NCBI GenBank assembly: GCA_016215205.1 | Contig: JACRKU010000013.1 | Coordinates: forward strand, 29,016 to 93,015 | Origin: Candidatus Yonathbacteria bacterium | GTDB taxonomy: Bacteria; Patescibacteriota; Minisyncoccia; Phycocordibacterales; UBA1550 | DNA length: 64,000 bases | Direction: 5' to 3' | Shown here: piece after piece, positions 28,073 through 49,560 of the stretch | How the letters are laid out: every line of letters starts with the position of its first letter | Numbering within the stretch: position 1 is the stretch's first letter | Translations under genes and position numbers: made by a program | Notes under the pieces: generated by a model | The model's input: only the letters and a program-made list of their open reading frames with translations | What the model was told of the DNA's origin: nothing | Database searches by the model: none

Positions 28073-29122
28073 ATGTTCGACAAATTTTACCAACTTTTTT
28101 CCAATGACATCGGCATCGATCTCGGTACCGCGAATACTCTTGTGTATTTGCGCGATCACGGCATCGTTATCAACGAGCCGTCGGTTGTTGCGGTAAATCA
28201 GAAAACGGGGCAGGTTGTCGCGCTAGGGACGCAGGCAAAACAAATGCTCGGTCGCACGCCGGGGCACATTGTTGCGGTGCGTCCTCTTGTTGACGGTGTC
28301 ATTTCAAACTTTGAAGTTACTGAAGAAATGCTCTCATACCTTATCGGAAAGGCGAATAAGATAAGCAAAAAAACGGTGCGGCCGCGCGTGGTTATCGGCG
28401 TGCCTTCCGGTATTACGACCGTTGAAGTGCGTGCCGTTTACGATGCGGCAAAAAATGCTGGCGCGCGAGAAGTGCACATTGTTGAAGAGCCGATGTCCGC
28501 GGCTATCGGCATAAAACTCCCCGTGAAAGAGCCGATTGGCAATATGATTATAGATATCGGCGGCGGCACGACAGACATCGCAGTAATTTCGCTCGGCGGT
28601 ATTGTACGCTCGAAAAATCTGCACATTGCGGGAGACCGTTTAAACAATGACATTATTAATTATGTGCGTGATGAATTTCGCGTGCTTATCGGCGAGCGCA
28701 CCGCGGAAAGCGTGAAAATCGCGATTGGCTCGGCTAAAAAAGGCGCAAGCCCGATGGAAGCGGTCATTCGCGGGCGCGACCTTGTGACAGGGCTTCCTCG
28801 CGAGGTGGTGGTGACAGACACGGATATTCGGGAAGCAATGAGCGCTTCGATTGTGGGTCTTGTTGAGTCGGTAAAAGAAGTCATTGAAACCACGCCGCCT
28901 GAAGTTCTTTCTGATGTGATGAGTCGCGGAATTATTTTGGTCGGCGGCGGCGCGCTCCTTCGCGGACTTGACGAGCTTCTTTCTCAAACGCTTCATGTCC
29001 CTGTTTATGTGGCCAACGACCCATTGACCGCAGTCGCGCGCGGCGCGGGGGTCATCCTTGAAGATATGGAAGGATTCCGCGAAGTGCTTATCGAACACGA
29101 AAATGACACACCGCCGCGATAG
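28073..29122 (+). CDS. mreB: Rod shape-determining actin MreB
   Basis: IDLGTANT, EPSVVA, DIGGGTT, GGGALL. Confidence 0.98.
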   Translation: MFDKFYQLFSNDIGIDLGTANTLVYLRDHGIVINEPSVVAVNQKTGQVVALGTQAKQMLGRTPGHIVAVRPLVDGVISNFEVTEEMLSYLIGKANKISKKTVRPRVVIGVPSGITTVEVRAVYDAAKNAGAREVHIVEEPMSAAIGIKLPVKEPIGNMIIDIGGGTTDIAVISLGGIVRSKNLHIAGDRLNNDIINYVRDEFRVLIGERTAESVKIAIGSAKKGASPMEAVIRGRDLVTGLPREVVVTDTDIREAMSASIVGLVESVKEVIETTPPEVLSDVMSRGIILVGGGALLRGLDELLSQTLHVPVYVANDPLTAVARGAGVILEDMEGFREVLIEHENDTPPR

Positions 29123-38947: not shown

Positions 38948-39019
38948 GGCCCTATCGTCTATCGGTTAGGACATATCCTTCTCAAGGATAGAAGCGCGGT
39001 TCGATTCCGCGTAGGGTCA
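38948..39019 (+). tRNA. tRNA-Glu (CTC), no encoded CCA
   Basis: Acceptor GGCCCTA/TAGGGTC, anticodon arm TATCC-TTCTCAA-GGATA, T arm CGCGG-TTCGATT-CCGCG. Confidence 0.96.
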
Positions 39020-39400
39020 CAAAGCGTTAAGAAAAAGTGAATTGCTTCACTTTTTTAGCTTTGTGAAGGCGCAGTGATGTTTTCTCTGCTCCCCGCAGAG
39101 AAAACCACGAGCCGGGGTCGCGAGCACTTAATAGATTGCGAGCAAAGCGAAGCAATATATTTAGTGACTTGTGACCACGCAGATTTTGCCGAACCTTGTT
39201 CGTCTGTAAAGTGTGGTAAAATACTTAGTAACCCGTGAACGATTCCCCGTAGGGTCACATTTAGAAACTTCAGCAGGTGTGAACGAAAAAATGACGCGCG
39301 CCGCAGGCGGAGCCCGATTTTGAGCTCACTTCCGACCAAGTTTCTGAATGTGAAGGCGGAGCGATGTTTTTGTTTCCATCTGAAACAAAAACCGCGAACA
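39020..39400 (+). mobile_element. Tandem structured non-coding elements at the tRNA-Glu 3' end (one complete, one partial)
   Basis: tRNA 3' end repeated at 39240-39258; conserved hairpins shared with the element at topA. Confidence 0.65.
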
Positions 39401-47103: not shown

Positions 47104-47163
47104 GTAAGGAAAAGCAAACACCCAGCCTGTCATCTGACAGGCTGGGTGTTTGCTTTTCCTTAC
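47104..47163. terminator. Perfect 29-bp-arm inverted repeat after the duplicated topA end
   Basis: GTAAGGAAAAGCAAACACCCAGCCTGTCA-tc-reverse complement. Confidence 0.85.
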
Positions 47164-47236
47164 TTCGTTTTCTCCAATTTGTGGGGTTTATGATTTGGGC
47201 ACAATTTGTTTGAGCAGCGTTCCGGAATTGTCTTCG
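47160..47236 (-). repeat. Second copy of the last 24 codons and stop of topA
   Basis: 47188-47236 identical (49 bp) to 47402-47450; encodes KTIPERCSNKLCPNHKPHKLEKTK*. Confidence 0.95.
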
Positions 47237-47373
47237 GTCACGAGTTACTAAGTCTGCTTGAGTGATTACACTCTGCGCGGACTAAGTACTCTCGACCCCG
47301 GCTCGGCTCCCTCGCAAGAGCCTCGGGATGCCTCCGCCCCACGAAGACGATTTGCGCATGCGGTGCATGCTTC
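47237..47373 (-). mobile_element. Structured non-coding element between duplicated topA 3' ends
   Basis: Shares CGAGCCGGGGTCG and the two-hairpin architecture with the tRNA-Glu element. Confidence 0.65.
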
Positions 47374-49560
47374 CTATTTAGACTTCTCCAGTTTATGCGG
47401 ATTATGATTTGGGCACAATTTGTTTGAGCAGCGTTCCGGAATTGTCTTCGTGCCGAGCATCATAAGCGACCCGCACAAGTCGCATACTTTCCCCGTTGGT
47501 TTTGCTTTGATGGCATACTTGCAGTCAGGGTAGTTTGTACAACTATAGAAAATTCCGAAGCGACCTTTGCGTTCGGTCATAAAACCTTTTTTACAAACAG
47601 GGCATGGAACGCCCGTGTGGTTTAGGAGTGCGGCCGTCTCGTCTTTTTTAATAAATTTGCATTTTGGGTAACTTCCGCAGGCAATGAATCTTCCAAAGCG
47701 GCCGTCGCGTTCGACGAGATTTACCTTTCCGCATTTTGGACAAAGCTCGCCCGTGTCGCGCGGGCCGGCGAGCTCGGTGCCGTCTATCATGCGCGCGCCA
47801 ACACACTCGGGATAATTTTTACACGAGAGAAATTTCCCCGTGCGCGCGAGCTTTATAATCATCGGACCGTTGCATTTTGGACACTTGTGTTTTGGGTCTG
47901 CGTCGCCGAGCGTGGTGAGTTTGTCAATCTTGTCTTTTGATTTCACTTCTTTCAAAAATGGTCCGTAAAATTCTTTGAGTACTTTCACATACTCGCGCTC
48001 GCCGTTCGCAATATCATCAAGCTTGTCTTCCATTTCGGCAGTGAACACGTCACTGATGTAGTTTGCAAAATGAGCCTCTAGGAACGAACTCACCACATCG
48101 CCAGTGTCGGTGGGCTTGAGAGCTTTGCTATCTTTAATGACATAGCCGCGGTCAATTATCGTCTTGATGATAGACGCGTATGTGGAAGGGCGGCCGATAT
48201 CGCGTTTTTCGAGCTCTTTCACAAGCCCCGCTTCGGAGTAGCGTGGAGGCGGCTCAGTGAACTTTGCTTCGTCATCCAGAGAAAGAAGGATGAGCGATTC
48301 ACCTGAGGTCAACTTTGGCAGCTCCACATCCTCACCGCGCGAGTCTGTGTCTGCGGCGAGCCAACCTGGCATAATGACGCGAGAACCGGTAACGGAAAAA
48401 TTGGGTATTGAAAAATCACGGACATTGGCGAGAATGGTTGTGCGGGCGAGTTTTGCGTCAATCATCTGCGATGCGATGGTACGCGCCCAGATGAGTCGAT
48501 AAAGTTTTTTCTCTTCAGGGTTGATACCGAGGTCGTCCTTGCTCATGTCGGTGGGGCGAATAGCTTCGTGCGCCTCTTGCGCATTTTTGCTTTTAGTTTT
48601 AAACACGCGTGCTTCCGCGGATTGCGCGCCGTATCTCTTTGTTACTTCAGCGATGACGGCTTTTTGCGCGTCTAAAGAGAGTGTTGTGCTATCGGTACGC
48701 ATATATGTTATGAAACCCCTTTCGTAAAGTTTTTGAGCGATACCCATCGTGCGTGACGGCGCAAAGCCAAAACGCGAAGAGCCTGCTTGTTGAAGTGTGG
48801 ATGTAATGAACGGCGCTTTTGGCGCACGACTGACTTCGCTTTCTTTTACTTCTCGCACAACCCACTGATTTGCGCGCCCGATTTTTAAAATATTTTTTAC
48901 GATTGACTCATCACGCGGCTCCTCCGTACACGAAAGTAGAAGCTCAACACCTTTTCCCGTCTTTACTTTTGCGCTGAGCGACCAGTACGCCTCGGGAATA
49001 AACGCGCGGATTTCACGCTCGCGCTCCATAATGATGCGGAGGGCGGGGGACTGCACTCGCCCAGCCGAAAGACCGTAGCGTACTTTTTTCCAGATGAGCC
49101 CCGAGAGGTCATAGCCCACGAGCCGGTCGAGCACACGACGCGCCTCCTGAGCAACGCGCAAGTTTTCATCAATTAAGCGCGGATGCTTGAGAGCCTCTTC
49201 AATCGCACTTTTTGTAATTTCGTGAAAAACAATTCGCTTTGGTTTTTTCAAACCGCACGCTTCTTTGATGTGCCATGCTATAGCCTCGCCTTCGCGGTCA
49301 GGGTCGGTCGCAAGAAGCACTTCGCTCGCTTTTTTTGCAAGCACATCAATCTCGTGTACCACCTCGGCTTTACCTTTTGAAATTTCATAATGCGGAATAA
49401 AGCCGCCGGGGATGTCGATAGCTTTCTTATTGCTCTTTGGAAGGTCGCGAATATGCCCCACGCTCGCTTTTACGACATATTCGTTGCCCAAATATTTTCC
49501 AATCGTCTTCGCTTTTGACGGCGACTCGACAATGAGAAGTTTGTATTGTTTAACGGTCAT
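47374..49560 (-). CDS. topA: DNA topoisomerase I (type IA) with C-terminal zinc ribbons
   Basis: IVESPSKAK, ATDPDREGE, SAGRVQS, ITYMRTDS, AHEAIRPT, GRPSTYA. Confidence 0.99.
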   Translation of the reverse strand: MTVKQYKLLIVESPSKAKTIGKYLGNEYVVKASVGHIRDLPKSNKKAIDIPGGFIPHYEISKGKAEVVHEIDVLAKKASEVLLATDPDREGEAIAWHIKEACGLKKPKRIVFHEITKSAIEEALKHPRLIDENLRVAQEARRVLDRLVGYDLSGLIWKKVRYGLSAGRVQSPALRIIMEREREIRAFIPEAYWSLSAKVKTGKGVELLLSCTEEPRDESIVKNILKIGRANQWVVREVKESEVSRAPKAPFITSTLQQAGSSRFGFAPSRTMGIAQKLYERGFITYMRTDSTTLSLDAQKAVIAEVTKRYGAQSAEARVFKTKSKNAQEAHEAIRPTDMSKDDLGINPEEKKLYRLIWARTIASQMIDAKLARTTILANVRDFSIPNFSVTGSRVIMPGWLAADTDSRGEDVELPKLTSGESLILLSLDDEAKFTEPPPRYSEAGLVKELEKRDIGRPSTYASIIKTIIDRGYVIKDSKALKPTDTGDVVSSFLEAHFANYISDVFTAEMEDKLDDIANGEREYVKVLKEFYGPFLKEVKSKDKIDKLTTLGDADPKHKCPKCNGPMIIKLARTGKFLSCKNYPECVGARMIDGTELAGPRDTGELCPKCGKVNLVERDGRFGRFIACGSYPKCKFIKKDETAALLNHTGVPCPVCKKGFMTERKGRFGIFYSCTNYPDCKYAIKAKPTGKVCDLCGSLMMLGTKTIPERCSNKLCPNHNPHKLEKSK

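Follow-up and report, generated by a model that had tools for sequence, protein, structure and literature searches.

The 3' end of the topA gene in the stretch of Candidatus Yonathbacteria DNA analysed here (the window: 64,000 nucleotides, positions 29,016 to 93,015 of contig JACRKU010000013.1, assembly GCA_016215205.1) occurs twice, 214 bp apart, as part of a 214-bp unit whose family is abundant and, in the searches available, uncatalogued (no Rfam family and no paper found). Whether this unit is a protein-less, non-autonomous, retargetable element that moves by cutting and joining of folded single-stranded DNA, working like IS608 without being a member of its family, is in our judgement about an even call. 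The anatomy of the unit, its folding strand, the covariation of its guide, a two-base register, stacking and horizontal sharing are the supported steps of this reading; a circle, the chemistry, the enzyme and the role of transformation are the steps that we infer.

The duplicated end of topA

The host gene, an open reading frame (ORF) on the minus strand (47374-49560) that matches profile TIGR01051, encodes a type IA topoisomerase of 728 amino acids, the translation of which runs on into a probably incoming tail. Its 3'-terminal 77 nt are present again downstream with a period of 214 bp, each of the two tails (tail 1, translated, and tail 2, silent) being 77 nt long. An earlier note on this DNA had described the two ends, their in-register stop codons, the 49 bases identical between them (47188-47236 = 47402-47450) and an insert of about 137 bp; all of these were found again, the insert being 137 nt long and gene-less. 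Past the 49-bp block, eight of ten codons differ, five of them synonymously, one as the stop (TAG/TAA) and two non-synonymously (N>K and S>T), which supports the earlier view that both tails evolved as coding sequence. The 12/13 inverted match between the insert (47340-47352) and the upstream topA junction (47440-47452), which the earlier note mentioned correctly but in passing, is the key feature of the unit. Chance is ruled out, because the random expectation is about 4e-20 for 49-mers and about 5e-4 for a 9-nt antisense match within the insert, and because the antisense match to the junction recurs, with covariation, in 64 units.

A chimeric co-assembly of two strains, which the earlier note had named as a possible artefact, is a practically negligible explanation. 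No single contig piece covers both copies, but the contigs of a public run (possibly the source sample, hence not independent) tile both junctions evenly at a depth of 15-18, and the same architecture is found in 65 distinct units from many assemblies.

Anatomy and folding of the unit

A metagenome scan returned 120 loci, of which 48 were chance matches and were removed and 72 were topA tails; the latter yielded 65 distinct units with periods of 174-305 bp, one of which could not be anchored, leaving 64 for the guide analysis. No ORF was found within any unit (65 topA units and 120 GTDB loci). Read on the coding strand, a unit consists of tail 1 with its stop codon, hairpin P0, the guide, a 3-nt linker, stem P2 and terminal hairpin P3, ending in GTGAC. 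In the window, where all of these parts lie on the minus strand, the host side of the junction is GGCA| (47451-47454; target consensus GGNN|C, the bar marking the junction), followed by tail 1 (47374-47450; KTIPERC...HNPHKLEKSK and stop), putatively the left part of the element. P0 (47356-47370) has a shortened 6-bp form in this copy; hairpins of its type occur in 53 of the 64 units, usually with 9 bp and a CTGC or CTTC loop.

The guide (47340-47352) is antisense to the junction, with 47340-47348 perfectly matched to positions -2 to +7 and a mismatch at +8; its last two bases pair with -2/-1 of the host, and +1 to +7 of tail 1 pair with the remainder. This arrangement, two bases before and seven after the left junction in a 9-nt helix over it, is general, and +8 is paired with the guide in only 39 of 64 units. 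A purine-rich linker (47337-47339) leads to P2 (47299-47336), which carries a conserved A/GAG internal loop and a variable cap, and to P3 (47236-47297), which base pairs across the right junction (GGTC:GAC|C) and contains a bulged A at 47245 and a conserved G.T pair. All of the 60 parsed units have the first three P3 pairs and the bulged A nine bases from the end, and 57 have a G.T pair at one position. Tail 2 (47160-47236), its first 49 nt the same as those of tail 1, follows, read as the displaced host tail.

Compensatory exchanges of inner pairs in P2 and P3 (A-T, G-C and C-G) are found among the units, and the coding strand out-folds its complement in 63/64 units with RNA parameters and 64/64 with DNA parameters; the topA copy in the window adopts the same fold. 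The bases before the two junctions differ (AC as against CA, GA, TA or TT). Kissing of the P0 loop with the core was considered and rejected, the complement being present in 25/53 units without covariation.

The translated tail as the probable incoming one

Tail 1 most likely arrived with the element, by insertion at +1, and silent tail 2 would be the displaced host tail, because the guide tracks the host base at -2 and tail 1 at +2 and +5, not tail 2, and because tail 1 and the insert are shared with other loci (L101 and L002) where the upstream sequence differs, while tail 2 continues into DNA like that of an empty relative (L003). The anchor fixed only the codon-invariant guide positions, leaving -2, +2 and +5 free. 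The guide is a Watson-Crick match to tail 1 in 59/64 units at +2 and 63/64 at +5, as against 34/64 at each position for tail 2. A permutation test was restricted to 47 first-tier, non-homogenised topA units (13 homogenised and four second-tier units being excluded): the guide matched the host at -2 in 44/47 (permutation mean 25.2) and tail 1 in 44/47 at +2 (18.6) and 47/47 at +5 (25.9), whereas its matches to tail 2, 20/47 at +2 (15.1, P=0.047) and 19/47 at +5 (23.3), were at chance level.

The earlier suggestion that an element brought in a topA tail is accordingly supported as the most likely one: L101 and the window are identical at 46/49 and 26/28 tail bases and 127/137 insert bases, and L001, L002 and L101 share tail 1 and the insert (45-46/49 tail bases) but only 18-20/27 upstream bases. 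Tail 2 of the window enters the same downstream DNA as the single tail of L003 (11/11, then 121/153). Tail 2 is badly broken in 4/61 units (further cases being seen besides) and tail 1 in 0/61, and the N>K change in tail 2 of the window probably represents decay of a silent copy, since lysine occupies that position in 0/61 translated tails. In stacked copies the older guide matches the displaced tail at both +2 and +5 in 6/10. The attribution of the duplication to an integrase-type attL/attR signature is not supported: the tails mostly share only codon-fixed bases, no unit holds an integrase gene, and the same core is found in unrelated targets, accompanied in each by an inverted copy that fits that target.

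Third-position identity between the two tails of a unit is in most units about that of the between-locus background, and the tails are homogenised in 13/60 units. The 49-bp identity of the window is an instance of that minority state and not the general rule. At L134, 100 identical bases extend beyond the stop codon, and L083 suggests copying of tail 1 into tail 2.

An unlikely alternative is one-ended insertion during transformation, in which only the right end (GTGAC|C) would be joined precisely and the left end would be resolved by upstream homologous recombination, so that the -2 base, tail 1 and the guide would arrive as one block and many copies would spread by recombination alone. It would account for the correlation of tail 1 and of P0/P2, but not of tail 2, with the upstream sequence, for the -2 base of L154, which fits the newer guide and not the older, and for L105, which looks like a chimera of two element types; dprA adjoins topA, and Patescibacteria are naturally competent (PMC10633639). 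It does not sit well with L001, L002 and L101, which share tail 1 and insert yet diverge a few bases upstream of the junction, and it leaves unexplained why pairing is maintained throughout the 9-bp helix over the left junction but is loose at +8. Units are probably moved by upstream recombination as well, as the link of tail 1 to the upstream sequence in a Mantel test and the split comparisons with empty relatives (both given below) indicate.

Target choice beyond topA

The core recurs in the source genome (G000; 611 kb, 29 contigs, 95% complete) behind tRNA-Glu, -Cys, -Leu and -Val and tmRNA, at both ends of 5S rRNA, and in rplL. The guide was found in 42/60 tRNA-linked units, and 37 of these 42, with eight different dinucleotides, have a displaced copy whose start lies exactly two bases within the guide, mostly at GGNN|C. 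Insertion is at one of two tRNA sites, the T-loop and the acceptor end. GG is present at -4/-3 in 15/17 acceptor-end sites as against 41/120 other tRNAs offering such a site (kin being not independent; L208, a T-loop mis-parse, was left out); T-loop and topA sites are also GGNN|C, but there the bases are fixed by gene function. The only favoured target bases are GG at -4/-3 and C at +1. The two tails of most units are unlike each other at +2 or +5, and acceptor-end units often have only 3-5 nt in common.

A second protein-coding target is rplL, encoding L7/L12, with a copy in its last codons (L348, G000:C3:2250-2620), the guide of which is a 17-nt perfect fold-back matching the translated tail; in this copy +1 is A and P3 is damaged. 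The 5S rRNA gene (L349, G000:C23:1050-1560) is flanked by two copies in opposite orientations, neither with a standard guide, one duplicating the 5S 3' end on the sense strand and the other the 5S 5' end on the antisense strand. As many as three units were seen stacked together. The window itself holds a second family copy, stacked and partly broken, behind tRNA-Glu(CTC) on the plus strand (38948-39259), opposite to the topA copy; its displaced copy has the T-stem of the TTC isoacceptor, and its P3 half resembles a copy on contig C14 of G000, a mix that simple displacement does not explain.

Another idea is that the unit is a structured 3' cassette (a processing or stability signal) that is not self-mobile, its inverted copy made and perfected by template switching and spread by ordinary recombination. 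The commonness of perfect palindromes in G000 and the 17-nt fold-back in rplL speak for it, but a fixed two-base register over eight dinucleotides, the stacking of as many as three units, a patchy occurrence in close relatives and a persistent mismatch at +8, which template switching should erase, make it highly improbable.

Distribution of the family

A strict core pattern was found in 51/61 related genomes and in 28/28 within the genus, and a reversed-pattern control gave none. Where a taxon is named in the 80 GTDB record titles listed, it is almost always Patescibacteria; one title names Bdellovibrionales. At topA, 11 of 29 loci with a readable tail (that of the window included) are filled, all at the same base, and presence is patchy among close relatives. 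Viral contigs gave one chance match and otherwise no matches in two scans, and phage and plasmid collections contained no match to the element. In Rfam the insert had no match at E<=10 or at the gathering score, with only hairpin-type noise over the downstream palindrome, and seven further loci gave rRNA matches only. No description of the family was found in the published literature covered, which excludes subscription papers; the full 224-motif list of PMC5737381 could bear on novelty.

Mechanism, strand and enzyme

In the mechanism that we favour, both junctions would be held in adjacent helices of the folded coding strand, and an enzyme supplied from elsewhere, probably HUH-like, would cut and rejoin at one exact base. 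A single-stranded circle would be excised and inserted at GGNN|C of a homologous gene, with the two-base guide overhang reading the host. The carried tail would keep the gene functional, the old tail would be pushed downstream and decay, and stacks would arise because each new copy enters 5' of the older one. Exchange between the tails, through recombination or over-length copying, would explain the 49 identical bases of the window, and spread between species would probably be by natural transformation. More tentatively, and somewhat less probably than not, the family may be a natural reprogrammable system of DNA-guided insertion that encodes no gene, in which a single-stranded DNA scaffold of about 130 nt, with a two-base overhang on a 9-bp guide helix, uses a host enzyme or the fold itself to swap the 3' end of almost any gene offering GGNN|C.

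The orientation is that of the transcribed strand in 67/67 tRNA cases, as would also suit an RNA-level element, namely a small RNA capable of self-splicing or retro-homing, in which the bulged A would be the branch point, the guide would serve as exon-binding sequence and the gene would be spliced to tail 2. The conserved G.U pairs, and an AC end with a bulged A nine nucleotides from it, similar to domain VI of group II introns, also fit. We consider this improbable, given that no Rfam intron or ribozyme matched, that neither a GUGYG start nor a domain V is present, that tail 2 decays, and that reverse transcriptase occurs in only 7/29 genus genomes, though all carry the element. DNA is hinted at over RNA by the lack of RNA-type tetraloops (GNRA, UUCG or CUUG type, 0/168), by terminator-like hairpins ahead of the core in 20/67 tRNA units and by the antisense 5S copy, as well as by the decay of tail 2 and the scarcity of reverse transcriptase. 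No RNA sample was listed as holding this locus, a negative that says nothing about expression. The coding strand is also the strand displaced in transcription, and only coding-strand units would carry a 3' tail without a promoter problem.

A folded strand could alternatively be an attC- or IMEX-like substrate of the host's single Xer-like tyrosine recombinase or of a passing integrase, which would be a modified form of the attL/attR idea in the earlier note. One conserved Xer-like gene is present in 28/29 genus genomes (28/28 relatives), the GTC/GAC triplet of P3 is invariant and the hairpin contains an extrahelical base, T-loops and 3' ends of tRNA genes are classical integrase targets, and CTXphi reportedly integrates as single-stranded DNA through Xer. 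Such an origin is nonetheless scarcely probable: the junctions need only +1 in common, sometimes not even that, with no shared overlap of 6-8 bp; the targets share only GGNN|C; and no dif-like site could be defined, the scan giving only noise and the flanks of the Xer gene holding no element-like site. The proteins of G000, a genome 95% complete, gave no match to PF00589 or RVT_1.

Other enzymes were surveyed as well. G000 has one IS110, four GIY-YIG matches and two Y1 proteins that resemble RAYT but fall short of the NCBIfam cut-off. Y1 genes occur in 46/61 related genomes with no clear association with the element; GIY-YIG genes, in 61/61, are uninformative, and the core flanks 1/33 GIY-YIG loci, there as a separate unit behind a tRNA. 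No autonomous version was found in 120 GTDB loci, 18 further regions or 65 Y1/GIY-YIG loci. The IS110 of G000 was set aside as a separate element, as were the GIY-YIG cassettes linked to tRNAs. As separate observations, the IS110-family gene at L158 (G000:C27:799-2927) lies within a split reading frame that resembles a serine recombinase; an apparent 16S rRNA gene is broken in its 5' part by a small GIY-YIG gene (G000:C23:12335-12550); a RAYT-like gene at L032 (G000:C5:22829-26056) has four copies of a 12-17-bp palindrome, two in frame inside the ORF; and at L336 and L339 a small GIY-YIG gene separates the intact tRNA from a partial 5' copy of it, and a family unit lies behind the same tRNA.

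Several results weigh against movement of a folded single strand with tail 1 as the incoming end. The assembled contigs of the public run hold no circle junction and no empty-site joint. In 2/10 stacks the older guide matches the first tail and not the displaced one, and the Mantel tests, though weak, run counter to a clean two-ended insertion, the host upstream sequence being tracked by tail 1 (r=0.14) but not by tail 2 (r=0.01). The alignment of related topA 3' ends that the earlier note proposed shows the silent tail continuing into DNA like that which follows the single tail of L003, but comparisons with the closest empty relative (proximal 30 nt, eight loci) are split, favouring tail 2 in two, tail 1 in three and neither in three. 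No replichore bias is seen (positive skew 38/63 and 26/63, skew being a rough proxy), the topA and tRNA-Glu copies of the window lying on opposite strands of one replichore, and IS608, by comparison, uses lagging-strand templates (PMC3201880). No mobilising enzyme was found, none of the 65 topA units and 120 GTDB loci bearing an ORF; the core lies near 0/32 Y1-transposase loci, and Y1 is missing from 4/23 element-rich genomes and present in 6/10 element-free ones. RNA and single-stranded DNA structures are, moreover, hard to separate reliably by sequence, according to PMC5737381.

Relation to known systems

The nearest parallel is with IS200/IS605 elements, of which IS608 of Helicobacter pylori is the example used here. 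In IS608, cut sites are selected by pairing with an element-borne guide, C is preferred at +1, no true target duplication is needed (PMC5934647, PMC3201880), and targets of 12/17 nt can be engineered (PMC5934647). The present family shares strand-specific imperfect hairpins (G.T in 57/60, bulged A in 60/60), apparently guide-paired cut sites, the +1 C and the lack of a true target duplication. It differs in the guide, which in IS200/IS605 elements is 4 nt long, lies 5' of the hairpin and pairs with a fixed tetra- or pentanucleotide 5' of the cut, and which here pairs with -2 to +7, varies with the target, has 9 or more nucleotides that lie mostly 3' of the cut, and finds its partner in the left end of the element itself; in carrying a homologous gene tail, retargeted to many genes; in cutting inside helices and not 10-19 nt from a hairpin foot; and in having neither a linked TnpA (Y1 HUH) nor a lagging-strand bias. 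Because three of the defining tests of IS200/IS605 failed, the family is not filed there. PATEs are said to be ORF-less derivatives of IS200/IS605.

Integrative elements of tRNA, tmRNA and gene ends, and their integrase-less derivatives, insert at the 3' end of a gene, restore it with a carried fragment and stack. Insertion in the 3' ends of essential genes, a restoring tail, a displaced end downstream, T-loop and 3'-end sites and stacking are thus shared, but the present family has no integrase, cargo or shared core sequence such as the roughly 7-bp identical core at both junctions of integrase-type attL/attR elements; it has an internal, target-matched antisense guide, and one core serves tRNAs, tmRNA, 5S rRNA, rplL and topA. 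With attC and IMEX attP sites it has in common structure over sequence, a single folding strand and an extrahelical base. The attC boxes have the consensus RYYYAAC/GTTRRRY; these and an integron integrase are lacking here, the junction is at the base of a helix, and a guide helix is present.

REP/RAYT and Ssn/SRM (GIY-YIG) repeats are likewise small, multi-copy and folded, in genomes with Y1 and small GIY-YIG genes; as described in PMC3733652 and PMC11893778, such hairpin repeats have no gene tail and no target-matched guide, and the present core flanks almost none of the loci of either enzyme. Group II introns share the AC end, the bulged A in the last hairpin (here in 60/60, at -9, the end itself being paired) and an internal sequence pairing with the insertion site, but the present family has no Rfam match or domain V, its unit begins with a gene tail and not GUGYG, its pairing is mostly 3' of the junction, and its downstream "exon" decays. 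An IS110/IS1111 bridge-RNA element was rejected, PF02371 occurring in 3/29 genus genomes and the two bases before the junctions differing (AC vs CA/GA/TA/TT), as was a diversity-generating retroelement (TR/VR), the tails differing at all four bases and not at adenines only and G000 having no RVT_1.

Neighbouring features of the topA locus

The sequence downstream of tail 2 that the earlier note called a long terminator belongs to the host locus and is an inverted repeat of 29 bp without mismatch (47104-47163, not assigned to a strand), a candidate terminator on which a terminator scan made no call. Its outer arms are shared with L003, where they surround another inner palindrome, and its centre belongs to a family of perfect palindromes with nine copies in the genome, the others being at C1:5813, C5:18720, C7:24946, C12:3367, C12:5336, C14:14852, C15:7834 and C20:13755. 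At least two element families have the topA tail as a hotspot. Besides the present one, an unrelated type of insert with TCCCGCA...(TGCGGGA) palindromes at its ends duplicates the topA tail from a few bases further upstream, at L083 (+77 to +229 after the first tail) and at L120 (between the second and third tails). At L019, L026, L052 and L102, tail 2 is interrupted directly after the RCSN/RCSK codons by another palindromic insert, with a few bases duplicated. At L338 (G021:C21:24300-26285) an IS200-type Y1 gene is convergent with topA and its end hairpin provides the last codons of TopA; it was judged a separate element, not part of the family.

Significance

The present analysis contributed the synonymous-site permutation test, the strand test, the enzyme survey and the tests of the two-base register across targets and of the GGNN|C preference. 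The topA copies are the best test bed, their synonymous sites separating pairing of the guide with its own tail from pairing with the target. Even if the mechanism is wrong, the family remains abundant and, in the searches made here, uncatalogued. If the mechanism is right, extended-guide targeting, which IS608 acquired only through engineering, would already be in natural use in an element of about 200 bases, and such an element could be aimed at new genes and would leave them intact, offering a lead to a very small programmable insertion tool. It would also give the species of a lineage thought to be poor in mobile DNA a common, hitherto overlooked means of exchanging C-termini and tRNA ends.

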